This document shows positions 5,995 to 16,168 of a stretch of DNA of 64,000 nt, in pieces. Both the position numbers and the translations under genes were made by a program. Within the stretch, counting starts at the first letter, position 1. Each line of letters starts with the position of its first letter. A model generated the notes under the pieces. The model did no database searches and had not been told where the DNA came from. It saw nothing but the letters and a program-made list of their open reading frames with translations. Source of the DNA: Escherichia coli (lineage in GTDB: Bacteria > Pseudomonadota > Gammaproteobacteria > Enterobacterales > Enterobacteriaceae); assembly GCF_030013205.1 (NCBI RefSeq), contig NZ_CP122648.1; one strand, given 5' to 3'.

Positions 5995-6267
5995 ATGTCT
6001 CATACCATCCGTGATAAACAGAAACTGAAAGCGCGTGCCAGTAAGATTCAGGGCCAGGTCGTGGCGCTCAAGAAAATGCTCGACGAGCCGCACGAATGCG
6101 CTGCAGTTTTACAACAGATTGCTGCTATCCGTGGCGCGGTAAACGGTCTGATGCGGGAAGTGATTAAAGGTCATCTGACGGAACACATCGTTCACCAGGG
6201 GGATGAGCTAAAACGTGAAGAAGATCTGGATGTCGTTCTGAAGGTGCTGGATTCTTATATCAAATAA
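5995..6267 (+). CDS. rcnR: Ni/Co-responsive transcriptional repressor (CsoR/RcnR family)
   Basis: 90-aa ORF ([29 protein letters not shown]...) divergent from rcnA. Confidence 0.95.
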
Positions 6268-6304
6268 TTTATTAACGCGATTGTAAAACTGCGGTTTTTA
6301 CTCG

Positions 6305-6333
6305 TTTACAACGCGTGCGCTGGACATTACCAT
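6305..6333 (+). promoter_or_regulatory. Candidate sigma70 promoter, possibly the displaced native thiM promoter
   Basis: TTTACA (6305-6310), a 17-bp spacer, then TACCAT (6328-6333), about 30 bp upstream of the left TPP-aptamer copy. Confidence 0.35.
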
Positions 6334-6360
6334 CCTCCTCTGCGATTTATCATCGCAATC

Positions 6361-6437
6361 AAACGACTCGGGGTGCCCTTCTGCGTGAAGGCTGAGAAAT
6401 ACCCGTATCACCTGATCTGGATAATGCCAGCGTAGGG
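6361..6437 (+). repeat. Left copy of the 77-bp direct repeat: TPP riboswitch aptamer fragment (putative attL)
   Basis: Identical over 77 bp to 15251-15327. The sequence AAACGACTCGGGGTGCCCTTCTGCGTGAAGGCTGAGAAATACCCGTATCACCTGATCTGGATAATGCCAGCGTAGGG is the thiM THI-box aptamer. Confidence 0.9.
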
Positions 6438-6520
6438 GGCCAAAATAGTCTTGAAAATTATGTGGTTGTATCTCTTTTTGACCATAAATCATGCTGTTAA
6501 GGTACAAAAAGGGGTCGTTT

Positions 6521-7828
6521 ATGAGGTCAAGAACTCTCCCATACACATTTCAGCGAAACGGTAATTACTATCTACAAATCCGGCTTTCGGATGGTCGGAT
6601 ATACAAAAAATCACTTTTTACTGACAGTTATCGCGAAGCATCGGCGTTGATGATTGGCCTTACTCCGCACATTCCTTTCGTTAAATCACTCGCTACTCCG
6701 TTGCCGCAATTTAATAAGTTTGTTTCAAACTTGATCGCTTCGTCACGTAACGTAATGATTCCGTTGCCACTCCCTCAGCAATTGAACAATATTTCTAAAG
6801 AAGTTTTGCAGCTTCAACCACCAGCCAAACCGGAAAAGGTGCTAACACTTGCTGATGCGTGGGCTATGTACAAGGAGGAAAGAGGTCGAAATTGGACAAA
6901 ATCGATCTCAATGGCAAATGAGCGTTATATGGAGGTATTGCTTGTTGTCTTGGGAAAAGAAACAGACGTAACGGCAATCACCAAACAAGATATTAAGCGA
7001 GTAATGGAAACTGTCGAAAACTTACCAAAGCGTGTAGTGCAACCGTATAGGTCAATGACTATTCAGCAACTAATCGAATGTGATGATGTGCTGCCAGAGG
7101 ATTTAGTTGGTGCTGAGGCTGTACATAAGCACCTTAAAATCTACAAATCGTTATTCAAAACATTTCTGACTGAAAACAAAGATATTCTATCTAAGTCTCC
7201 GACTGATGGAATAGTAGCGGCACCATCCAAAGCTAGGTTTGGTGCATACAGTGCAGCAGAAATGAAAAAATTTGTAGGATGGGCACTAAAGCAGCCTGAT
7301 GGATGGCAGAAGTGGATCACTTTGTTGTTGGCGTACACAGGAGCCAGAAGAGGTGAGATTGCTAAACTGGAGAAGTCGCAGATCAAATTTGATGAAGATA
7401 GCCAGCGGCACTATCTTCTGATCGCGGAAAGAAGGCTGGGTAAAACTGAGAATGCTACAAGACAGGTAGTGATTCATCCCAAACTGATTGAGTGGGGGTT
7501 TCTGGATTTTGTTAACCGCCAATGGAAAGAGAAAATCTTTTCGGAAGTCTCAGGTCGAAATATGTCAAAGATAGGTAAAGTTCTTTCAGATGTTCGTGAT
7601 CAGCTTGATATTCCTTATCTTGATGATTATGGGCAGCGGCGCTTGGTGCATAGTTTCCGGCATACTATGATTTCTACTTGTTTAGCTGGTTGGGTGAGTA
7701 ATTTGGCGCATCTGCAACAGGTGGTAGGTCATGAGAAAAGCGGTTTAGGGATTACCAGACGCTATTTGCACTCTTTTCCTTTACGTTCAATTTGTTACGT
7801 GATTGATGGTTTGGACTGGTTAAATTGA
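6521..7828 (+). CDS. Tyrosine recombinase / phage-type integrase
   Basis: ATG 6521 with SD AAGGGG (6509-6514). C-terminal catalytic residues are visible: ARRGE (Arg), HSFRH (His-x-x-Arg), GHEK (His), RRYLH (Tyr). The track start at 6491 adds 10 aa. Confidence 0.9.
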   Translation: MRSRTLPYTFQRNGNYYLQIRLSDGRIYKKSLFTDSYREASALMIGLTPHIPFVKSLATPLPQFNKFVSNLIASSRNVMIPLPLPQQLNNISKEVLQLQPPAKPEKVLTLADAWAMYKEERGRNWTKSISMANERYMEVLLVVLGKETDVTAITKQDIKRVMETVENLPKRVVQPYRSMTIQQLIECDDVLPEDLVGAEAVHKHLKIYKSLFKTFLTENKDILSKSPTDGIVAAPSKARFGAYSAAEMKKFVGWALKQPDGWQKWITLLLAYTGARRGEIAKLEKSQIKFDEDSQRHYLLIAERRLGKTENATRQVVIHPKLIEWGFLDFVNRQWKEKIFSEVSGRNMSKIGKVLSDVRDQLDIPYLDDYGQRRLVHSFRHTMISTCLAGWVSNLAHLQQVVGHEKSGLGITRRYLHSFPLRSICYVIDGLDWLN

Positions 7829-7927
7829 TGTGAGCCTCGTGAGAAAGGGAATAAATAGAGAAAATCAAGTTGTTACCTCATTGGCAGGGGATATAATGAC
7901 CATATTGTCATCTTGAGGAACAAAAGT

Positions 7928-9499
7928 ATGGTTGCTCGTTCTAACCTTGTAAATTTAGATGCACTGATTAAGCGTGCTGATTTAGGTTTAAAGATCCAAG
8001 ATAACTCTTCATTTGAAACGCTAAACAGTATTCCTGCAAGAGAATTGAAATCAGGAAGTGGAATTGCTGCGCTTCTGAGAAAACCAGATTTCCAGCGTGA
8101 AACAAATCATTGGGGGCCTGAGCAGGTTGTATCGCTTCTCGAATGCTACATCAATGGTGATTTGATACCTTCCGTTATTCTTTGGCGGTCTTCAACCCAT
8201 CTTTTTGTGATCGATGGTGGTCATCGTTTAAGTGCGTTACGTGCTTGGGTTGAAGATGATTATGGCGACGGTCATATATCCCATCAACTTTTTGGGCATG
8301 ATATTCCTCGTGAACAACGCCGCGCTGCAGATAGAACGAGAAAGCTTGTGAAGGAGAGGGTCGGTAGCTGGGAATATTATCAGAAGTTGCTTGCCGATGA
8401 TGCTTCATTGACCGAGGAACAGCAGAGAAGAATCAGCGTATTAACATCTCGTGGAATCTCAGTCCAATGGGTAGTGGGTGATGTAGATAAGGCAGAAACT
8501 TCATTTTTTAACATCAATATGAAGGGAACTCCTCTTGATGCTATCGAAGAGATGCTTCTAAAAAATCGCAAGAAAAGTATTCCGATAGCAACCCGAGCAA
8601 TTATTCGTGCCGGTAGAGGTCATCGCTATTGGTCGGGGTTTGATCAGAGCATTGCCCAGCAACTTGAAGATAAATCTGCAAAGCTGCATCGTTTGCTGTT
8701 CGAACCTGAAGTTGATCGCCCTATTAAAACTCTTGATCTTCCATTAGGCGGTTCTAGGGGGGTCAGGACAGCGATCCAAGTTTTGAAAGATTTCTTACTG
8801 ATCACTGATTGCAACCAGAATGGTGTTTTGAAAAAAATCGAAGCCTACCCTGATGATGCGTCGGGTGCTGATACGTTAAGAATCCTTTCCAAAGCCACAT
8901 CATTAAGCAATAGAATTACAGGCAATGGCGATGGTAGCTTGGGGCTTCATCCAGCGATTTATTTTTATGGTCCGACTGGAATCCACTCAACGCCAATGTT
9001 TCTAGGAACTGTGCTACTGGTGGCAAAACAACTCTCTAACAATAATGGTCAATTCTTTAAAGACTTCACAACAATCAGATCTAGGCTTGAGAGAATAATG
9101 ATCGAATTTAAGGACTTGATCGCAATGATAGTACAAAAACCAGGTAGTAATGTCCGAGTGGCTCGCTACTGTGATTTTTTAAATGCGGTGATCAAATCAC
9201 TCAAGCAGGGAGAGAATATTGATGAGAGTAAGCTTATCGAGCTGGCCGAATTGGAGGGGAGAATACTCTCTGGAGATTTTAAGAGAACATCAGCAAAAAT
9301 CAGCGATGAACAAAAAAGTAAGGTGTTCATTGACGTGGCTCTGCGCAACGCTTTGAAATGTCCGATTTGCCAAGGTTACCTTGATACTGAAAAGTCAGTT
9401 TCTTATGATCATATCGTACGTGTCCGTGAGGGAGGAGATGGTAATTCTGACAATGTACAGTTGACACACCCTTACTGTAACCAGTCAGTGAAGTGTTAA
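7928..9499 (+). CDS. DUF262/ParB-like (DGQHR-type) N-terminal domain fused to a C-terminal zinc-ribbon HNH nuclease; candidate defence nuclease
   Basis: ATG 7928 with SD GAGGA. Motifs: KPDFQRE, VIDGGHRLSALRAW, FFNINMKGTPL. C-terminal sequence: CPICQGYLDTEKSVSYDHIVRVREGGDGNSDNVQLTHPYCN. The track start at 7913 is a TTG. Confidence 0.8.
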   Translation: MVARSNLVNLDALIKRADLGLKIQDNSSFETLNSIPARELKSGSGIAALLRKPDFQRETNHWGPEQVVSLLECYINGDLIPSVILWRSSTHLFVIDGGHRLSALRAWVEDDYGDGHISHQLFGHDIPREQRRAADRTRKLVKERVGSWEYYQKLLADDASLTEEQQRRISVLTSRGISVQWVVGDVDKAETSFFNINMKGTPLDAIEEMLLKNRKKSIPIATRAIIRAGRGHRYWSGFDQSIAQQLEDKSAKLHRLLFEPEVDRPIKTLDLPLGGSRGVRTAIQVLKDFLLITDCNQNGVLKKIEAYPDDASGADTLRILSKATSLSNRITGNGDGSLGLHPAIYFYGPTGIHSTPMFLGTVLLVAKQLSNNNGQFFKDFTTIRSRLERIMIEFKDLIAMIVQKPGSNVRVARYCDFLNAVIKSLKQGENIDESKLIELAELEGRILSGDFKRTSAKISDEQKSKVFIDVALRNALKCPICQGYLDTEKSVSYDHIVRVREGGDGNSDNVQLTHPYCNQSVKC

Positions 9500-9567
9500 A
9501 ATCACGTTTCACTTTTCGTTGTCATTTGTATCGAACGTTTTTGAGAAAGGGCAGGATTGCGAGCGAG

Positions 9568-9720
9568 TTACCAGCGTAAACAGATAAATACTGTTTTCGT
9601 AAGCCCACTGTCGCCGCTTTCCGCTCTGCAATTTTTGCTTGTCGGGGGGCTAATTGTGGCTTTGCTTGCCATAACATTAAAAGTCAGTAATATACTGAAA
9701 ATTAATACAATACTTTTCAT
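9568..9720 (-). CDS. Possible 50-aa exported peptide (below the ORF-track cutoff)
   Basis: Hand translation of the minus strand gives MKSIVLIFSILLTFNVMASKATISPPTSKNCRAESGDSGLTKTVFICLRW*. The N-terminus is signal-like and the SD is weak (GGGA). Confidence 0.35.
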   Translation of the reverse strand: MKSIVLIFSILLTFNVMASKATISPPTSKNCRAESGDSGLTKTVFICLRW

Positions 9721-9863
9721 ATATCCCATTGAATATTCAGTTCATTGCCAAATAGCAAGCGGAGCACTCTCTCTTTAACGTTGTAGTAACTTAGTTGAAC
9801 AATTTTATAATATAATTTGTCTAAGTTGGTTGATGTATCAAAGCCTTTTTCTGAAGAATGAAT

Positions 9864-9883
9864 TGGCGTGATTACTCACGCCA
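9864..9883 (-). terminator. Hairpin 5 nt after the stop of the 9888-10235 gene
   Basis: TGGCGTGA (9864-9871) pairs with TCACGCCA (9876-9883), loop TTAC. The downstream tract on the minus strand is only moderately U-rich. Confidence 0.4.
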
Positions 9884-9887
9884 GATT

Positions 9888-10235
9888 TTAAATTTCAGAA
9901 CATAGGCTAAGCGTATAGACAGCAGTTTGCCCATCATTGTTAGTCGGTCTCATAACGAAAACAGGCTGACTCCCATTATCAATGTATGTGACTGCAACCC
10001 CTCCATCAGGTGTGGCATACATTTTTGCGATGCTTTTTTGACCTATAAAATCAAGTCTCCAAGTCTTACCACCAAGATGTATTGTCATTTTTTTATCTTG
10101 TATATCAAAAGTTGAATCTACAGAAACTTTCTGACTTCCCGAGTCAATATGACCTTCCTGTATTGCTTTACAGGAAAAGGTTGTGGCGTGGCCCATCACT
10201 GGAATTAACAAAGCGGCAAATACTAGTTTTTTCAT
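9888..10235 (-). CDS. Small exported (periplasmic) protein of unknown function
   Basis: ATG 10235 preceded by GGGAGA. Sec signal peptide MKKLVFAALLIPVMGHA; the mature part looks beta-rich with one Cys near each end. The track ORF has a 19-aa upstream extension. Confidence 0.7.
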   Translation of the reverse strand: MKKLVFAALLIPVMGHATTFSCKAIQEGHIDSGSQKVSVDSTFDIQDKKMTIHLGGKTWRLDFIGQKSIAKMYATPDGGVAVTYIDNGSQPVFVMRPTNNDGQTAVYTLSLCSEI

Positions 10236-10345
10236 TTGTCTCCCTTGATGTGTCAAATGGATGGTGATGCTAATAATACATGATTGATTCAAAATGTCAC
10301 GATTAGTGCGTGGTTAATTGGTGCGTCAAATTGCATCTTTGTGCC

Positions 10346-10810
10346 ATGCGAAAGAATCTGAGATACCTTTTTGGACAACGAGTAAAAGAGTTCCGTATAG
10401 CTATTGGCTTAAGCCAAGAGGCCTTTGCAGATCGGTGTGGTTTTGCTCGTAGTTATATGAGTCGAATTGAGCGTGGTTGCTCTAATGCATCTCTTGATGC
10501 AATTGAGGTTCTGGCTGACGCTTTGCGTATTGAGCCTTGGCAGTTACTAGCTTCTGATTCAAGGAAAACTGATGATCAGGAGGTACTTGTTCCTTATGCT
10601 GCAGATGGGTCGTGTTTTCATCCAGGATTGGCAAGTACTCGCGATGGTTCGTTTAGAGTAGGGGAAAAATCAGCCCAGAAACGTTTCAGTTCGTTCAATG
10701 ACGCTCTCGAATACCTTCGTGGAATGGAAACCGCGAAGTGGCGTAGGCCTAATGCTAGTGGTAATTGGGGAATTGTATCTGCGGTTAAATGGGATCGACT
10801 GAATCAATAA
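10346..10810 (+). CDS. XRE/Cro-family HTH regulator with an uncharacterised C-terminal domain
   Basis: The sequence MRKNLRYLFGQRVKEFRIAIGLSQEAFADRCGFARSYMSRIERG is a classic XRE HTH. About 85 aa of C-terminal sequence are unassigned. Divergent from the 10235 gene. Confidence 0.8.
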   Translation: MRKNLRYLFGQRVKEFRIAIGLSQEAFADRCGFARSYMSRIERGCSNASLDAIEVLADALRIEPWQLLASDSRKTDDQEVLVPYAADGSCFHPGLASTRDGSFRVGEKSAQKRFSSFNDALEYLRGMETAKWRRPNASGNWGIVSAVKWDRLNQ

Positions 10811-10976
10811 GATATCAGTAATTTTCGGGCCACTCCACAAGGCAATAAGTGGCTTAGTGGTGATTATCGAAGGGGAATACAAGCGAGCACCTAGGCACCA
10901 TTGCAAGAACCGCTCAACGCTGAGATCAGCAAGCCCCGATTTCTGCCGACCGTCCCTGTCAAATATCAAGGAGGCA

Positions 10977-11516
10977 TTACGCCTCCTCTTCTTCCTTCTT
11001 AATTCGCTGTACCGTCGAAGGAGCAACATTAAAGATCTCGGCGGTTTTACGCACTGACACGCCATCAGAAAGGGCTTTCTTTATACCTTCTCGATCCACT
11101 GCCTTACCTTTACCACGCTTTCTAGGATTGACGGCTTGCGCTTCTCGTTTACGTTCTAACATCAGTTCACGTTCACACGTTGCCACTGCCGACAACATAG
11201 TAAGCATCATTTTTCCCATCGCGCTTGTAATGTCTGCAATGATCCCTTCTTTGTGAAAGCGAACAATTACACCACGATTATTAAGTTGTTCCACTAAGGC
11301 AAGAATGTCTAAGGTGTTACGCCCTAAACGATCAAGAGAGTGGACGTGTAAGGTGTCGCCTTCTCTCAGATAGGCTAAACACGCTTGTAAGCCTGGGCGG
11401 TTAGTGTCTTTACCAGACAGCTTATCTTCAAAGACTTTGTCGAGAGTTAGTCCTGCAAGCTGGCGATCAGTATTTTGATCTACAGTGCTCACACGCTTAT
11501 AGCCGATATTGCTCAT
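10977..11516 (-). CDS. Serine recombinase (resolvase/invertase family)
   Basis: MSNIGYKRVSTVDQNTDRQ carries the catalytic Ser motif, and there is a C-terminal HTH (VRKTAEIFNVAPSTVQRI). 179 aa from ATG 11516. Confidence 0.9.
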   Translation of the reverse strand: MSNIGYKRVSTVDQNTDRQLAGLTLDKVFEDKLSGKDTNRPGLQACLAYLREGDTLHVHSLDRLGRNTLDILALVEQLNNRGVIVRFHKEGIIADITSAMGKMMLTMLSAVATCERELMLERKREAQAVNPRKRGKGKAVDREGIKKALSDGVSVRKTAEIFNVAPSTVQRIKKEEEEA

Positions 11517-11529
11517 AAAATCCCCTTGA

Positions 11530-11654
11530 TGTATCGATTTGGCACCACTCCAATGCAAATGAGTGTGTTGTATTCATTTGGTCTGTTTCAAGCCTTATGG
11601 ATACGGAATATTACACGATTTAGCTGTATTCATTTGGTATGCCTAATGGATACG
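11530..11654. promoter_or_regulatory. Putative res site (2-3 imperfect inverted-repeat subsites) upstream of the resolvase gene
   Basis: TGTATTCAT (11569-11577) with ATGGATACG (11597-11605), and TGTATTCAT (11625-11633) with ATGGATACG (11646-11654), at different spacings. A weaker third half-site TGTATCGAT lies at 11530-11538. Confidence 0.45.
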
Positions 11655-12165
11655 CAGGGGGATAGATTAAATGGTGTTCTGTTTATACAGGTTTATTTGT
11701 TAGATCAACAAGTTGGCATTTCTAAACAGATGTTTGAACGTTGCCAAATGCCTTGACAACACAAGAAAATGGCTTGCTATGAACGCATTACACGAAATAA
11801 GGCTATAAAAACAAAATAAATTTTAAAATTTGCACAAAAACGAGAAAACTCGTTCGACAAATAATAGATTGGTTTTTAATCGACAATTTCTGACAATTTC
11901 TGATGGTGCTCTGTAAACCGCATTACACAAGGCTTTGCGAAAGTGATGTAAAAGTGAAGAAAGTTAACATTGCACTTTGAAGCCATTTTTCATTGGATTT
12001 TTTAGTAGGGAATTACACAGGGAATAGAGAGCATTATTCTATGATTTACACAGGGAATATAGGGGATTATGGCACACACATAGAAAGGCATTACACAGAG
12101 TGAGTGCTATGTGATGATTGGTAGTAACGGTAGGTCACTGTGAGCTACCCCCCACAGAATTCTGT

Positions 12166-12286
12166 TACCCCTATCAAGTCTAACAGGGGTTTATAAAGAA
12201 TAATAAACCGATGATACCCCTATCAATATTGATACCCCTATTAGCTTTGATATGACTACCCCTATCAAAACTGATACCCGATAAGA
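12166..12286 (+). repeat. Array of five direct repeats (TGA)TACCCCTATCAA followed by an AT-rich stretch (ori-like iterons plus DUE)
   Basis: TACCCCTATCAA at 12166, 12215 and 12257. Variants TACCCCTATTAG at 12233 and TACCCGATAAGA at 12275. An AT-rich run follows at about 12281-12340. Confidence 0.7.
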
Positions 12287-12440
12287 ATAAGTTAATAAGA
12301 ATAATTAAATAATATTCTTTATATCTATATATATGATCTTTTTGCCTTCCGGCGTTAGCTTCACTCTCTGGCAAGCAGCCTTACTCCGCTATCTTTGGGC
12401 TTCGTGGCTGGCCCGTTCCGCTCACACCGAAAGCAAAGCG

Positions 12441-12518
12441 TTACTCTTCTTCGTGTAACTATCGTTGGCGGTAACGCCACACGAAGAAATACTATTGCGC
12501 TGTGCGCAGTAAGAGTAA
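12441..12518. other. GC-richer segment with nested inverted repeats (three-way-junction-like fold; function unknown)
   Basis: TTACTCTT (12441-12448) pairs with AAGAGTAA (12511-12518). CTTCGTGT (12449-12456) pairs with ACACGAAG (12479-12486). TGCGC (12496-12500) pairs with GCGCA (12504-12508). Confidence 0.3.
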
Positions 12519-13364
12519 TCACCTAACCAATCACCTGATTGCTTACGTGTTAACTCTCTCTAACTCTTAATTACCCTCCTACATTTAATAACTCTATTAT
12601 TCTCTGTAGTTGTGTAATTACTCGAAGAGAGAGCGGCTAAAGCTCAATTACACTCTGCTTTCCTCGTGTAATTTCACTAAGCCTCAATACAATTTCACTT
12701 CCTACATTCTGTAGTCGTGTAATAGTTTTCGGTGGGGAAAAGCCAGAGGCGACACCGAAAGAAAATTCTGATCTTATTAATCTTATCTATCTTAGTTAAT
12801 CTTCTTACTTACTTTATCTACTTTATTATTAATAATAGCTTTATAAGCTCTCTGTGTAGCTCTCTGACGCAAGAAACAGCATTCAGGAAGGGAATCACCT
12901 TAGAAAAGTGTTCTTTGCGTCATAATGTGTTTTATGAAGGATTCAGAGGTGTTTCATAACACAAGGTATAGAGGATATTTTAGTTAATTAAAAATAAGGG
13001 GGCTAAATGCTTCTCTAACAGCATTAAGCAGGGTAGAGAATGGAAATGCATTGCCTACGTATATATAAACTCACTACAAGGCTTTACAGAGCGTTTTATA
13101 AAGTAACTAATCTAAGAACTCTCTGTTTTATATCTATCATCATCTTTCCATCATCTAACAAATACAAAATAAGCCCCTTAAATAAGCCTCTGGCGAGCTA
13201 AACAGCCATTACATAAGGGAATGTATTTCTTTTATCAAAACTTCGTTAGAACGCGTTTTAGAGCGTTTTATACAATAAGGAAGAATAGGACCGTCCGCAA
13301 GAGCACGAATTGCTAAGAAAGAATGTAAACGCATGAAAAATATCAGATTTTTTATGAAAATATA

Positions 13365-13393
13365 TTGACAAATGTTTCTTTATATGTAATAAT
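13365..13393 (+). promoter_or_regulatory. Near-consensus sigma70 promoter of the Rep-like module
   Basis: TTGACA (13365-13370), a 17-bp spacer ending in TGT (extended -10 type), then AATAAT (13388-13393). Confidence 0.6.
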
Positions 13394-13444
13394 AGGTATT
13401 AGAGAGACAGAAAAACATTCTTCTCTAAATAATCAAAATCAATG

Positions 13445-13483
13445 CACTTTGAAGCCGTCAGGCTTGCAAGGTGTTTTTCTTTT
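13445..13483 (+). terminator. Intrinsic-terminator-like hairpin in the leader between the promoter and the first ORF (attenuator or short sRNA 3' end)
   Basis: CACTTTGAAGCC (13445-13456) pairs with GGCTTGCAAGGTG (13461-13473) with two mismatches, followed by TTTTTCTTTT. SD AAGGAG and ATG 13504 follow. Confidence 0.5.
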
Positions 13484-13503
13484 AACTGAATAAGGAGTTT
13501 TTT

Positions 13504-13692
13504 ATGAAATGGTTTACACCGGAACACGTCGTAGAGGCATTTAAAAAAGGTGAGCTAACACGACATCAAGTAGTAATGAATCGTAATATGGCAAGGAGTC
13601 GAGGTTATCCAGAGCGTGAAAAATGTTTCGATGCAGCACTAAAAATTATTGATAAATTAAGAAAAAATGAAAAAGGATCTGAAACAGAGTAA
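13504..13692 (+). CDS. Small basic protein of unknown function (62 aa)
   Basis: Strong SD AAGGAG 7 nt upstream of the ATG. First ORF after the promoter and leader. Confidence 0.6.
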   Translation: MKWFTPEHVVEAFKKGELTRHQVVMNRNMARSRGYPEREKCFDAALKIIDKLRKNEKGSETE

Positions 13693-13711
13693 AGAAGAGA
13701 AGGAGAAAACT

Positions 13712-13882
13712 ATGAGCGAAACTACAGAAAAGAAAAGACAACCACGCACTTGCTTTCATATTCCTGATGAAGTATTTCAGGTGTTGTTTAAAGAAGCCAG
13801 AAGTAAACGTATCACTGTTACAGATTACATTCTTGATATGTTGAAAAGAGAGGCTGAAACACTCTCAAATAAAAGCAAGTGA
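13712..13882 (+). CDS. Ribbon-helix-helix (CopG/Arc-like) DNA-binding protein (56 aa)
   Basis: ATG 13712 with SD GAAGGAG. RTCFHIPDEVFQVLFKEARSKRITVTDYILDMLKR fits the RHH strand-helix-helix pattern. The track start at 13667 overlaps the previous ORF. Confidence 0.6.
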   Translation: MSETTEKKRQPRTCFHIPDEVFQVLFKEARSKRITVTDYILDMLKREAETLSNKSK

Positions 13883-13936
13883 TTTTTATCACCATAGTAG
13901 CGCCGTAGAGCGTGATTACATCAAGGAGCTTTTTTA

Positions 13937-14599
13937 ATGATTAAACATACAAAACCTTTCTTAGGAATAGATTATGACTTACTAGCAATCACTTCCCTAG
14001 TGATTAACGGCAAAACAAAAGAAGTAAAACTACATCATAAGATCATTTATTCTTATTTGTTAAGTTTATCTGGCACATATCAAAAGGTAACACCATCTTT
14101 GAAAGGTATTGGTGAGCGGTTAGGAGTAGGTACAGATCAGACGGTACGCCGTCATATCAAAGATCTTGTTTCTTTTGGATGGTTGAAGATTGAGGAAAGG
14201 GCAGGTAGCACAAATGCTTATATTGTCCTTCCTTATGAACAAGAAGCCCAGACACAACAAGAAGCTACCGTTAAAGCTGTTCAGGAACAGCTTCCCCCTA
14301 CGGAAGATAATAAAGAGTTTTCTTTTGATGTTCTTGATGATTGGGATGCGCCTTTACCTTGGGAAATGGAAGAAACGCCATCTGATGAAAAGGTAGCTAA
14401 TGATAATGAGGAGGATGTGTTAGAGAATTTTGCCTCTCTTATCATCCAGGAGAAACACACAAGAACAGGAGGGGCATCATTTATAGAATTTGCAACATCG
14501 TTAGCCTGTAAGCACAGGATAAAGCTACCAAATGGTATTGAGGCATATTTTGCTAAGAAACATCCCAAAGTATATGAAGACTTTGATATTCCATTTTAA
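13937..14599 (+). CDS. Winged-HTH protein with an acidic C-terminal region; putative replication initiator / DNA-binding protein
   Basis: SD AAGGAG precedes the ATG. wHTH-like segment LKGIGERLGVGTDQTVRRHIKDLVSFGWLKIEERAGSTNAYIV, then an acidic tail (DDWDAPLPWEMEETPSDEKVANDNEEDV). It lies next to the iteron region. The CDS call is solid; the function is inferred. Confidence 0.6.
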   Translation: MIKHTKPFLGIDYDLLAITSLVINGKTKEVKLHHKIIYSYLLSLSGTYQKVTPSLKGIGERLGVGTDQTVRRHIKDLVSFGWLKIEERAGSTNAYIVLPYEQEAQTQQEATVKAVQEQLPPTEDNKEFSFDVLDDWDAPLPWEMEETPSDEKVANDNEEDVLENFASLIIQEKHTRTGGASFIEFATSLACKHRIKLPNGIEAYFAKKHPKVYEDFDIPF

Positions 14600-14794
14600 T
14601 AAGGAGGGTTATGATTCAATATTTAGTAAAAAATAAAGTAGAATTCATCTATTCCACTCTCTAAAAATCTATCTGTGTAATATAAAATGAAAACATTATG
14701 GTATTAGCTATGTATTGGTTATTGTTCTTTCTGGCCTTAGAAACATATGCAAGTAAGTCTGGAAAACGAAAGTAATATATTGATGATTTGTTTG

Positions 14795-15052
14795 TTATAA
14801 CTTCGTGGTGTCAAGTCCAGCAGTTTTGAGTCGCTCGGTAAGATTTCTCATTTTGCTGAACTCTGTACCAAAGCTGGCTTTAAGTCCTACACCTTCGCAA
14901 AACTCTTTTGCCGTGACGTTTTTCAGATGGTCAACATATTTGGTCATCTGGAGGTGCATTTCCATCGTTTGGCTATTTCGTGATGCGCTGCTAATGGCTT
15001 GCTTAATGTTCTCGTAGATCTGGGTTCTGTCATTGTTTATCCCACCTATCAA
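14795..15052 (-). CDS. Small hypothetical protein (85 aa from a TTG start; may start internally)
   Basis: Open frame at the right end of the island. The only full-length start is TTG; the first in-frame ATG gives 56 aa (MEMHLQMTKYVDHLKNVTAKEFCEGVGL...). Confidence 0.45.
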   Translation of the reverse strand: MIGGINNDRTQIYENIKQAISSASRNSQTMEMHLQMTKYVDHLKNVTAKEFCEGVGLKASFGTEFSKMRNLTERLKTAGLDTTKL

Positions 15053-15146
15053 ATTTAGAAAAATAATATTAATTAGCTAATTAATATAATCAATGGTTTT
15101 CACCATCTGAATGATAGCCGTTAATTGTTTCTTTTTCATTCCTTCT

Positions 15147-15168
15147 ATGGGGTACAAAATGGGGTACA
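15147..15168 (+). repeat. Tandem ATGGGGTACA repeat near the right island end (candidate integrase arm-type sites)
   Basis: ATGGGGTACA at 15147-15156 and 15159-15168. A related GGTACAAAA occurs at 6501-6509 near the left end. Confidence 0.4.
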
Positions 15169-15250
15169 CAGAGAAGAAGCAATTAATGGAGGCGAGCTTG
15201 CATCTGCAAGCCACTTCCCCTAAGCTGGCACAAAATATAGAGATTCAACC

Positions 15251-15379
15251 AAACGACTCGGGGTGCCCTTCTGCGTGAAGGCTGAGAAATACCCGTATCA
15301 CCTGATCTGGATAATGCCAGCGTAGGGAAGTCACGGACCACCAGGTCATTGCTTCTTCACGTTATGGCAGGAGCAAACT
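15251..15379 (+). promoter_or_regulatory. thiM TPP (THI-box) riboswitch: aptamer plus expression platform (right repeat copy, putative attR)
   Basis: The aptamer sequence matches the well-studied E. coli thiM riboswitch. It continues into AAGTCACGGACCACCAGGTCATTGCTTCTTCACGTTATGGCAGGAGCAAACT and the thiM ATG at 15380. Confidence 0.9.
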
Positions 15380-16168
15380 ATGCAAGTCGACCTGCTGAGT
15401 TCCGCGCAATCTGCGCACGCGTTACACCTTTTTCACCAACATTCCCCTCTTGTGCATTGCATGACCAATGATGTGGTGCAAACTTTTACTGCCAATACCT
15501 TACTGGCGCTCGGTGCATCGCCAGCGATGGTTATCGAAACCGAAGAAGCCAGTCAGTTTGCGGCTATCGCCAGTGCGTTGCTGATTAACGTTGGCACACT
15601 GACGCAGCCACGCGCACAGGCGATGCGTGCCGCCGTTGAACAGGCAAAACGCTCTCAAACACCCTGGACGCTTGATCCAGTAGCGGTTGGTGCACTCGAC
15701 TATCGCCGCCGTTTTTGTCTGGAACTTCTGTCTCATAAGCCAACCGCCATACGTGGTAATGCTTCGGAAATCATGGCATTAGCTGGCATTGCTAATGGCG
15801 GACGGGGAGTGGATACCACTGACGCCGCAGCTAATGCGATACCCGCTGCACAAACACTGGCACGGGAAACTGGCGCAATCGTCGTGGTCACAGGCGAGGT
15901 GGATTATGTTACCGATGGCCATTGCACCGTTGGCATTCACGGTGGCGATCCGCTAATGACCAAAGTGGTAGGAACTGGCTGTGCATTATCGGCGGTTGTC
16001 GCTGCCTGTTGTGCGCTACCAGGCGATATGCTGGAAAATGTCGCATCTGCCTGTCACTGGATGAAACAAGCCGGAGAACGCGCAGTCGCCAGTAGCGAGG
16101 GGCCAGGCAGTTTTGTTCCACATTTCCTTGATGCGCTCTGGCAATTGACGCAGGAGGTGCAAGCGTGA
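15380..16168 (+). CDS. thiM: Hydroxyethylthiazole kinase
   Basis: 262-aa ORF ([33 protein letters not shown]...) directly after the TPP riboswitch. Confidence 0.95.

Follow-up and report, generated by a model that had tools for sequence, protein, structure and literature searches.

What does a cluster of short direct repeats do in the middle of 2 kb of bacterial DNA in which no gene is annotated? The question is raised by a 64-kb stretch of the Escherichia coli chromosome (hereafter the window), which is 100% identical to the chromosome of E. coli strain K_EC180 and to which all positions given here refer. The window carries an 8.9-kb genomic island, and the repeats (12163-12286) lie within this island, in the middle of a 2-kb stretch (11558-13504) without any gene in the RefSeq annotation. 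From sequence comparison and structure modelling we conclude, with a probability of roughly 80%, that the repeats are the iterons, that is, the initiator-binding part, of a RepA_N-type replication origin belonging to the replicon module of the island. The predicted initiator is a Rep-like protein encoded 1.65 kb downstream of the array, at 13937-14599. This reading draws on the pairing between repeat type and the N-terminal domain of Rep, on the modelled, RepA_N-like fold of that domain, on matches of Rep to replication-initiation families of the PHROG database, on the A+T-rich tract next to the repeats, on a phage-encoded counterpart of Rep, and on the literature.

Repeat array and AT-rich tract

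The array, here called type A, consists of four copies of TGATACCCCTATCAA (three of them exact 12-mers) and a half-site, all located on the plus strand. The units occupy positions 12163-12177, 12212-12226, 12230-12244 (degenerate), and 12254-12268, and are followed by the half-site at 12272-12286. Exact copies of the 12-mer TACCCCTATCAA occur at 12166, 12215, and 12257, and a copy with two mismatches (TACCCCTATTAG) occurs at 12233, while at 12275 the left half alone is retained (TGATACCCgataaga). An earlier, sequence-only reading of this DNA had counted five copies or near-copies in the same orientation; four of these stand, and the fifth is merely the half-site. The start-to-start spacings of 49, 18, 24, and 18 bp agree with the 18-24 bp given for the tight cluster in that reading. 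With the left flank included, the full type-A unit can be read off the sequence as a 16-bp semi-palindrome, TTGATA-CCCC-TATCAA. Matches to TACCCCTATCAA with at most two mismatches number 10 on both strands of the window, versus 2.9 expected, and four of them sit no more than 100 bp apart on one strand. For the exact 12-mer, our own arithmetic gives about 0.008 expected occurrences per window versus three observed.

An inverted partial copy, AACAGGGGT, is present on the minus strand between units 1 and 2 (12182-12190), just where it had been reported, and is also kept in four of the related loci described below (L011, L024, L025, and L026). The run of nearly pure A/T described directly after the repeats was found as well: the tract 12281-12335 (no strand assigned) abuts the repeats, contains 89% A+T, ranks as the most A+T-rich 55-mer in the whole window, and is a putative DNA-unwinding element. 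No conserved open reading frame (ORF) covers the repeats. A 64-aa ORF on the minus strand (12180-12374) had been dismissed as spurious, and rightly so, because neither of the two closest relatives has it intact: L011 contains stop codons in it, and L003 a frameshift.

Pairing of repeat type and Rep N-terminal domain

The pairing was examined in 19 loci, comprising the window, nine IMG/VR loci, eight that are part of complete genomes or plasmids, and a single locus of another Escherichia species. Three more loci (L024, L025, and L026) were fetched in order to challenge the pairing rule, which brought the total to 22. The 220-aa Rep protein encoded in these loci is modular, with five unrelated types of N-terminal domain and two types of C-terminal domain. 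At the position of the window array, every locus bears semi-palindromic repeats in tandem that belong to one of five types, with the following units: TTGATAccccTATCAA (type A); GGTAGGTCACwGTGAGCTAGGG (type B); GTAACGAnnnGTTAC (type C); ACAGAAwwnCTGTTA (type D); and CCCAGGAAATGAGTTCC (type E). The array located directly before the AT-rich tract was of the same type as the resident Rep N-terminal domain in 19/19 loci, and the 60 nt after this last array contained 73-88% A+T in all of them. Type-A arrays with five to six copies occur in L003 and L011, whose Rep N-terminal domain matches that of the window; the window array has one unit fewer. The type-B unit is repeated in tandem two to seven times in L004, L006, and L018-L020, which encode Rep with a type-B N-terminal domain, and the type-D unit is present four to five times in all eight loci with a type-D Rep.

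Plain co-variation by presence or absence of the type-A array and the type-A Rep was rejected, as the array region (at >=80%) was detected in 102 complete E. coli genomes and the type-A domain in just 63. About 40 complete E. coli genomes hold a near-complete type-A array beside a Rep of type B or type E. The three additional loci display this arrangement: a nearly complete type-A cassette (array plus AT-rich tract) is followed by a second cassette, of type B in L024 and L026 and of type E in L025, which adjoins a G+C-rich block and matches the resident protein. The pairing rule is positional, the array at the last AT-rich tract being the cognate one, and it holds in 22/22 loci. Older arrays persist upstream of the cognate array, some of them with an AT-rich tract of their own. 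The order of cassettes is C-B-D-A in the lineage of the window and C-B-D-A-E-B in L004, and stacked cassettes are located at 9470-9950 in L004, 3356-3800 in L024, 3346-3800 in L025, and 3483-3830 in L026. In the window, two lone non-cognate units are present on the plus strand, namely a type-B unit (TAGGTCACTGTGAGCTA, 12131-12147), which can be read as the remnant of an earlier array, and a type-D unit (CCCCCCACAGAATTCTGTTA, 12148-12167), which partly coincides with the left arm of type-A unit 1.

A comparison of the window (type A) with L004 and L018 (both type B) revealed interleaved linkage. Over its full length, the 1.6-kb backbone that separates the array from rep shows 92-94% identity, and identity in the C-terminal half of Rep amounts to 86-89%, while the N-terminal coding half of rep displays no detectable similarity. 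The array region of the window, likewise, shares no detectable similarity with that of L004 and only a short match, confined to the common remnant, with that of L018. Array and DNA-binding domain have thus been swapped together and the intervening DNA has not, a pattern best explained by a specific protein-DNA partnership.

The Rep-like protein

Rep of the window (13937-14599, plus strand) is composed of a type-A winged-helix N-terminal domain (residues ~10-100), a disordered linker (residues 103-156), and a helical C-terminal domain. The Pfam scan identified only HTH_36 in this protein. Four PHROG replication-initiation families, 270, 428, 391 ('O-like'), and 186 ('DnaD-like loader'), matched Rep with E values of 1e-10 to 1e-7; for 270, 428, and 391, the values were 1e-10 to 1e-9. 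An AlphaFold model based on 18 homologues had a mean pLDDT (predicted local distance difference test) of 68, with about 80 in the N-terminal domain. In a Foldseek search of the PDB with the model of this domain, the first match was 4ro3 (E 4e-4; target-normalised template modelling score, TM, 0.68; root-mean-square deviation 2.2 A over 100 columns), followed by the staphylococcal plasmid initiators 4pql, 4pt7, and 5kbj. According to PMC7145576, 4RO3 is the N-terminal domain of RepA from PLE, a Vibrio cholerae satellite, and the origins of RepA_N initiators have semi-palindromic direct repeats to which these proteins bind. As far as the model goes, the N-terminal domain of Rep would have the fold of these initiators. 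The likely binder of the repeats is the product of the gene at 13937 and not that of the small gene at 13712.

Both C-terminal types of Rep end in a motif resembling the tip of SSB, a protein that binds single-stranded DNA. This motif is EDFDIPF in the window (14579-14599) and IYDSIPF or IYDSLPF elsewhere. Such a tip was also seen in L002-L009 and L011-L020, with L012 as the one exception, and its residues are at least 90% conserved among the 18 homologues. The C-terminus of E. coli SSB is DFDDDIPF. The likeness suggests that the tip of Rep may recruit SSB-binding replication proteins. A search of the full-text literature revealed no paper describing such a route for an origin-binding initiator.

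Phage-encoded nucleases with Rep-like domains

Phage matches to the module were confined to the N-terminal part of rep, and a search of phage records with the type-A array region (E<=10) gave no meaningful match. The protein gp154 of phage Muut (332 aa; L010 6058-7056) shares 88% identity with the window Rep over 139 residues and is identical to it through Rep residue 115; at the DNA level, it is 94.7% identical to the matching part of the window rep. Besides the shared winged-helix domain, this protein contains another one and, at its C-terminus, a nuclease domain of the GIY-YIG type, which matched Pfam MUG113 (22.5 bits, just over the cut-off) and the endonuclease family PHROG 681 (2e-18). 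The first winged-helix domain is of type A in Muut gp154, of type D in the Mt1B1_P17 protein QNJ49226 (99% identical to L007), and of type C in Inny gp184 (87% identical to L008). The second domain of all three proteins has 75% identity with the Rep of L009, which is of type E.

These three coliphage proteins have been noticed before, and their second RepA_N domain was stated to lack a satellite match (PMC10448857). Contrary to that statement, the second domain does have one in the type-E Rep of L009. This locus belongs to strain EC100, and its Rep N-terminal domain is matched by the second domains of the phage proteins in L010, L021 (2542-3528), and L022 (2084-3187).

In Vibrio, the nuclease Odn of phage ICP1, whose architecture Muut gp154 resembles, copies the N-terminal domain of PLE RepA and cleaves the origin of PLE, for which it depends on the iterons there; by swapping their origin and RepA N-terminal domain together, PLEs evade Odn (PMC8263062). 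By analogy, the type-A array is probably the target of the coliphage nuclease that has the same DNA-binding domain, and Muut gp154 is predicted to be an Odn-like, origin-directed nuclease against this array.

Alternative explanations

Several points weigh against an origin. The support is computational, and both binding and replication by Rep are predictions. The Pfam RepA_N model had no match to Rep at E<=0.01, public databases label the protein as 'transcriptional regulator' or HTH protein, and winged-helix domains are frequent in transcription factors too. The distance between the array and rep is larger than in many replicons. No DnaA box (TTATCCACA) with one mismatch or fewer was found in 11560-13500, which removes one classical hallmark of an origin, though it fits a DnaA-independent one. 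Since a type-A array occurs beside a different Rep in some 40 genomes, the presence of an array alone is no proof of its use. Finally, the island is devoid of the capsid, tape-measure, and baseplate genes of its family and may be a decaying remnant with a disused origin.

The label and the domain class of the 13937 protein would suit a transcription factor without any role in replication, for which the repeats would be operators controlling a nearby promoter, for example that of an untranslated RNA transcribed from the gap. A profile of the Rep alignment searched against PDB sequences yielded just weak matches to generic winged-helix regulators, and the array coincides in part with a weak promoter-like site of the minus strand (12226-12197; 9/12 positions). 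However, the single strong promoter (13365-13393) is located 1.1 kb away and has no repeat copy nearby, Rfam detects no RNA family in the island besides two copies of a thiamine pyrophosphate (TPP) riboswitch, and the top structural matches are initiators and not regulators. An origin would also suit the phage nuclease counterpart and the AT-rich tract that constantly follows the array. Operators seem an unlikely explanation. It is also quite unlikely that the array is an inactive relic of a degraded chimera, with repeats not yet eroded for want of time. The missing unit relative to L003 and L011 would agree with decay, as would the facts that only 10960-14748 is common to the full elements of the family and that non-cognate arrays clearly survive in other loci. 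Yet rep, the two small ORFs upstream of it, and their promoter are intact, the island is 99-100% conserved over the full 3.8-kb query in 59 complete genomes, and the window array is cognate and positioned at the AT-rich tract. Very improbable, in our opinion, is a centromere-like partition, recombination, or packaging site serving segregation, multimer resolution, or encapsidation. Plasmid centromeres typically contain arrays of direct repeats, the window array has a serine recombinase gene 600 bp to its left, and satellites require a packaging signal somewhere; but no partition or terminase family was matched in the Pfam scan of nine island ORFs, and the array co-varies with the Rep N-terminal domain instead. 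The recombinase had no tblastn match (E<=1e-5) in 7/19 loci searched and is 93-95% identical between loci with unlike arrays (type A in the window, type B in L018); it is therefore not tied to the arrays.

The sequence-only reading had offered an origin or, alternatively, a partition or operator site. The first option is supported by the 22/22 co-variation, the modelled RepA_N-like fold, and the AT-rich tract after the array, as well as by the lack of partition genes among the scanned ORFs and of any repeat near the 13365-13393 promoter. Its proposal of an iteron-controlled plasmid or satellite origin can be narrowed to a satellite replicon of the PLE/RepA_N kind; the classical Rep_3 plasmid origin drops out, and no Rep_3 or TrfA initiator was matched in the Pfam scan of the island ORFs.

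Sequences flanking the array

A G+C-rich, hairpin-rich conserved block (12336-12545, no strand assigned) is located directly 3' of the AT-rich tract. Folding of its single-stranded DNA gave z values of -3.3 for the plus and -3.9 for the minus strand; a second sequence variant of the block, found in other loci, had z = -5.3. The variant of the block tracks the C-terminal type of Rep across the loci. In the window, the block holds TTCTTCGTGT...ACACGAAGAA around GGCGGTAACGCC, and both variants have CGCTCACA and TTGCGCTGTGCGCAG in common. The block is possibly a site of single-strand initiation, priming, or replisome loading.

The motif ATTACAC is clustered, in both orientations, between 11610 and 12723, where 9 of its 14 matches in the window occur. 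Five forward copies are located to the left of the array (11610-12096), and three reverse copies plus one forward copy to the right of the G+C-rich block (12612-12723). Motif abundance tracks backbone variant 1, which is the one with variant 1 of the block and the DFDIPF C-terminus. Binding of these motifs by the 56-aa protein encoded upstream of rep was considered and rejected, because their abundance does not track the variant of that protein. A known non-coding RNA in the gap was also rejected: the Rfam scan of 6000-15600 (E<=1) gave the two TPP riboswitch copies alone, so no known RNA accounts for this stretch.

Proposed mechanism of initiation

If the array functions as an origin, dimers of Rep would bind the TTGATA-CCCC-TATCAA units via their RepA_N-like winged-helix domain, and several bound dimers would open the adjacent 55-bp AT-rich tract. 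The hairpin-rich block that follows may serve priming or loading. The C-terminal domain of Rep, with its SSB-like tip DFDIPF, would attract replication proteins supplied by the host or by a helper phage during infection. If PLE is a guide, replication may depend on phage infection.

Two more speculative readings, which we offer as tentative possibilities, go further than the PLE model. In the first, the origin would be a stack of cassettes, to which new arrays with their AT-rich tracts are added next to the G+C-rich block while old ones are left upstream. Such a stack would record successive escapes from origin-directed phage nucleases and might allow replication by several types of Rep. In the second, Rep would recruit the replisome by mimicry of the SSB tip: several bound dimers would display DFDIPF or YDSIPF tips on double-stranded DNA, and these would attract SSB-binding proteins, for example PriA, primase, or the chi subunit of the clamp loader. 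Earlier descriptions appear to be lacking for the five pairs of origin and initiator, for the stacked older cassettes, and for the SSB-like tip of the initiator; the general principle of a RepA_N satellite origin and a phage nuclease directed against it is already known from Vibrio.

Gene content of the island

According to the RefSeq annotation of the identical genome and to Rfam, the island is inserted in the TPP riboswitch preceding thiM. Its boundaries are marked by a perfect 78-bp direct repeat on the plus strand, with the attL core at 6360-6437, in the duplicated TPP aptamer, as the left boundary and the attR core at 15250-15327, in the riboswitch before thiM, as the right one. The insertion duplicates the aptamer (6359-6454 and 15249-15345), with the left copy preceding the integrase gene (6491) and the right copy preceding thiM. 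With an aptamer copy ahead of each gene, the integrase may be controlled by thiamine, and thiM may rely on a promoter inside the island. An 8868-nt contig (L023) that contains the island and ends at the att repeats was considered as an excised circle; this interpretation was dropped, since an assembly break at the repeat explains the contig equally well.

The genes are arranged in the order tyrosine integrase, GmrSD-HNH nuclease, hypothetical protein, HTH_3 regulator, serine recombinase, gap, 62-aa protein, 56-aa protein, HTH_36 protein (Rep), and HTH_73 protein. The integrase (6491-7828) was identified by the Pfam scan. The adjoining gene, which encodes a protein with GmrSD_N and HNH nuclease domains (7913-9499), is likely an anti-phage cargo gene. 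The small serine recombinase of the resolvase/invertase type (10977-11558, minus strand; Pfam Resolvase, 4e-34; PHROG 125, DNA invertase) marks the left edge of the module common to the family. Just upstream of its gene, two direct repeats, TGTATTCATTTGGTMTG and GCCTWATGGATACG, occur on the plus strand (11569-11654), with copies 56 and 49 bp apart; they may form a res site at which multimers of an excised circle would be resolved. The plus-strand promoter-like site at 13365-13393 (TTGACA, 17-nt spacer, AATAAT, with TG) matches 11/12 consensus positions and precedes a three-gene operon. The first gene of this operon encodes a 62-aa protein (13504-13692, plus strand) conserved across the family, the second a 56-aa protein (13712-13882, plus strand; 98-100% identical in 15 loci), and the third, directly downstream, is rep. 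The region of the HTH_73 gene (14788-15102) is about 81% identical to a segment that neighbours genes for tyrosine recombinases on numerous large plasmids of E. coli. No structural-protein family was matched among the island ORFs (Pfam, PHROG).

Distribution of the element family

The segment 10960-14748 of the window is the replicon module of a family of ~12-kb E. coli elements and the sole part that the island shares with the full elements. The island is, thus, a chimera of this replicon module with a different integrase and defence-type cargo. The 2-kb unannotated stretch matched 800 of 20,395 E. coli records, 336 of them at >=80% coverage and mostly at ~90% identity. Several chromosomal sites and a single F-type plasmid harbour it, and none of these copies has any annotation in it. 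Alignments of the Rep protein were too variable to drive the locus search; when the 56-aa protein was used to search a single genome of each species, just one additional locus came up, in an Escherichia species. At this level of similarity, the family looks restricted to Escherichia.

The full elements are located beside tRNA-Thr, tRNA-Ser, or tRNA-Gly genes (tRNA-linked L003-L009). Their gene order starts, in most cases, with the recombinase; next come the gap, small ORFs, Rep (the HTH_36 protein), and several small genes, and then a major capsid protein of the lambda-E type, a protein resembling a tape measure, a baseplate protein resembling Dit, and a tyrosine integrase. The capsid, tape-measure-like, and baseplate-like genes are present in L003-L009, but not in the window island. 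The single plasmid copy (L002; NZ_CP126938.1, 7223-19003) comprises the recombinase, a type-C array, rep, and downstream genes, and is broken by IS3. Its location on a conjugative IncF plasmid, next to sopAB, implies that the module can also spread by conjugation. The type-A repeat was not found on plasmids, the lone module-bearing F-type plasmid having the type-C array.

The family has been predicted to represent satellites of Stephanstirmvirinae, with 224 E. coli satellites carrying modular RepA_N domains (Barth, Dunham & Seed 2023, PMC10448857). Those elements possess capsid, decoration, tape-measure-like, baseplate-like, and integrase genes and are integrated at tRNA and lysR sites. The text and supplements of PMC10448857 make no mention of iterons or of a mapped origin for the E. 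coli elements, and no later paper on them was found in the literature searched. The window island has the same replicon module as these satellites, a Rep N-terminal domain of the Muut type, and also an integrase and flanking attachment repeats. It differs from them in containing the replicon module alone, together with another integrase, the GmrSD nuclease, and HTH genes, and in being inserted in the thiM TPP riboswitch and not at a tRNA or lysR site.

Comparison with known replicons and significance

The closest parallel is the PLE/ICP1 system of Vibrio (PMC7145576, PMC8263062). PLE RepA and, as judged from its model, Rep of the window both have an N-terminal DNA-binding domain of RepA_N-like type, and 4RO3 is the top structural match of Rep. 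The PLE origin consists of semi-palindromic direct repeats in a non-coding region, as predicted here for the E. coli module; origin and RepA N-terminal domain are swapped jointly between elements; and a phage nuclease carries a copy of the satellite's N-terminal domain. In contrast to these shared features, there is no detectable sequence similarity between the two systems (20% identity in the structural alignment). The repeat units are 16-22 bp in E. coli and about 30 bp in PLE, and the E. coli family has five specificity types versus two. The E. coli loci, unlike PLE, keep older arrays stacked upstream, and their Rep ends in the SSB-like DFDIPF. The coliphage nucleases differ from ICP1 Odn in having two winged-helix domains, and the E. 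coli side is a prediction from sequence and modelling.

The modelled fold of the N-terminal domain also resembles that of initiators of the staphylococcal RepA_N plasmids pSK41 and pTZ2162 (4pql, 4pt7, 5kbj). In these plasmids, however, the origin is located inside repA or adjacent to it, host and C-terminal domain differ, and the Pfam RepA_N model fails to match the window Rep. The origin of phage lambda contains several dyad-symmetric repeats followed by an AT-rich tract. The window array has the same layout, and Rep has weak PHROG matches to 'O-like' proteins, but the lambda origin is located inside the O gene, whereas the window array lies far upstream of rep, and the island has no gene for a P-like helicase loader. 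Classical iteron plasmids with Rep_3 or TrfA initiators (pSC101, R6K, F, RK2) resemble the module in having direct repeats by an AT-rich tract and an initiator encoded in cis. They are unlike it in that the module has neither a Rep_3/TrfA match nor a DnaA box and that its repeats are dyad-symmetric.

The analysis places a candidate origin in a widespread, uncharacterised family of satellite-like elements of E. coli and accounts for a conserved 2-kb stretch that was left blank in the RefSeq annotation. Five pairs of initiator and iteron specificities are open to direct test, and predicted DNA targets can be named for the Odn-like nucleases of three phages: type A for Muut, type D for Mt1B1_P17, and type C for Inny. 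These origin/initiator pairs are compact and would be mutually orthogonal. If the proposed origin is true, an arms race of the PLE-ICP1 type would move into E. coli, the most tractable bacterial host.

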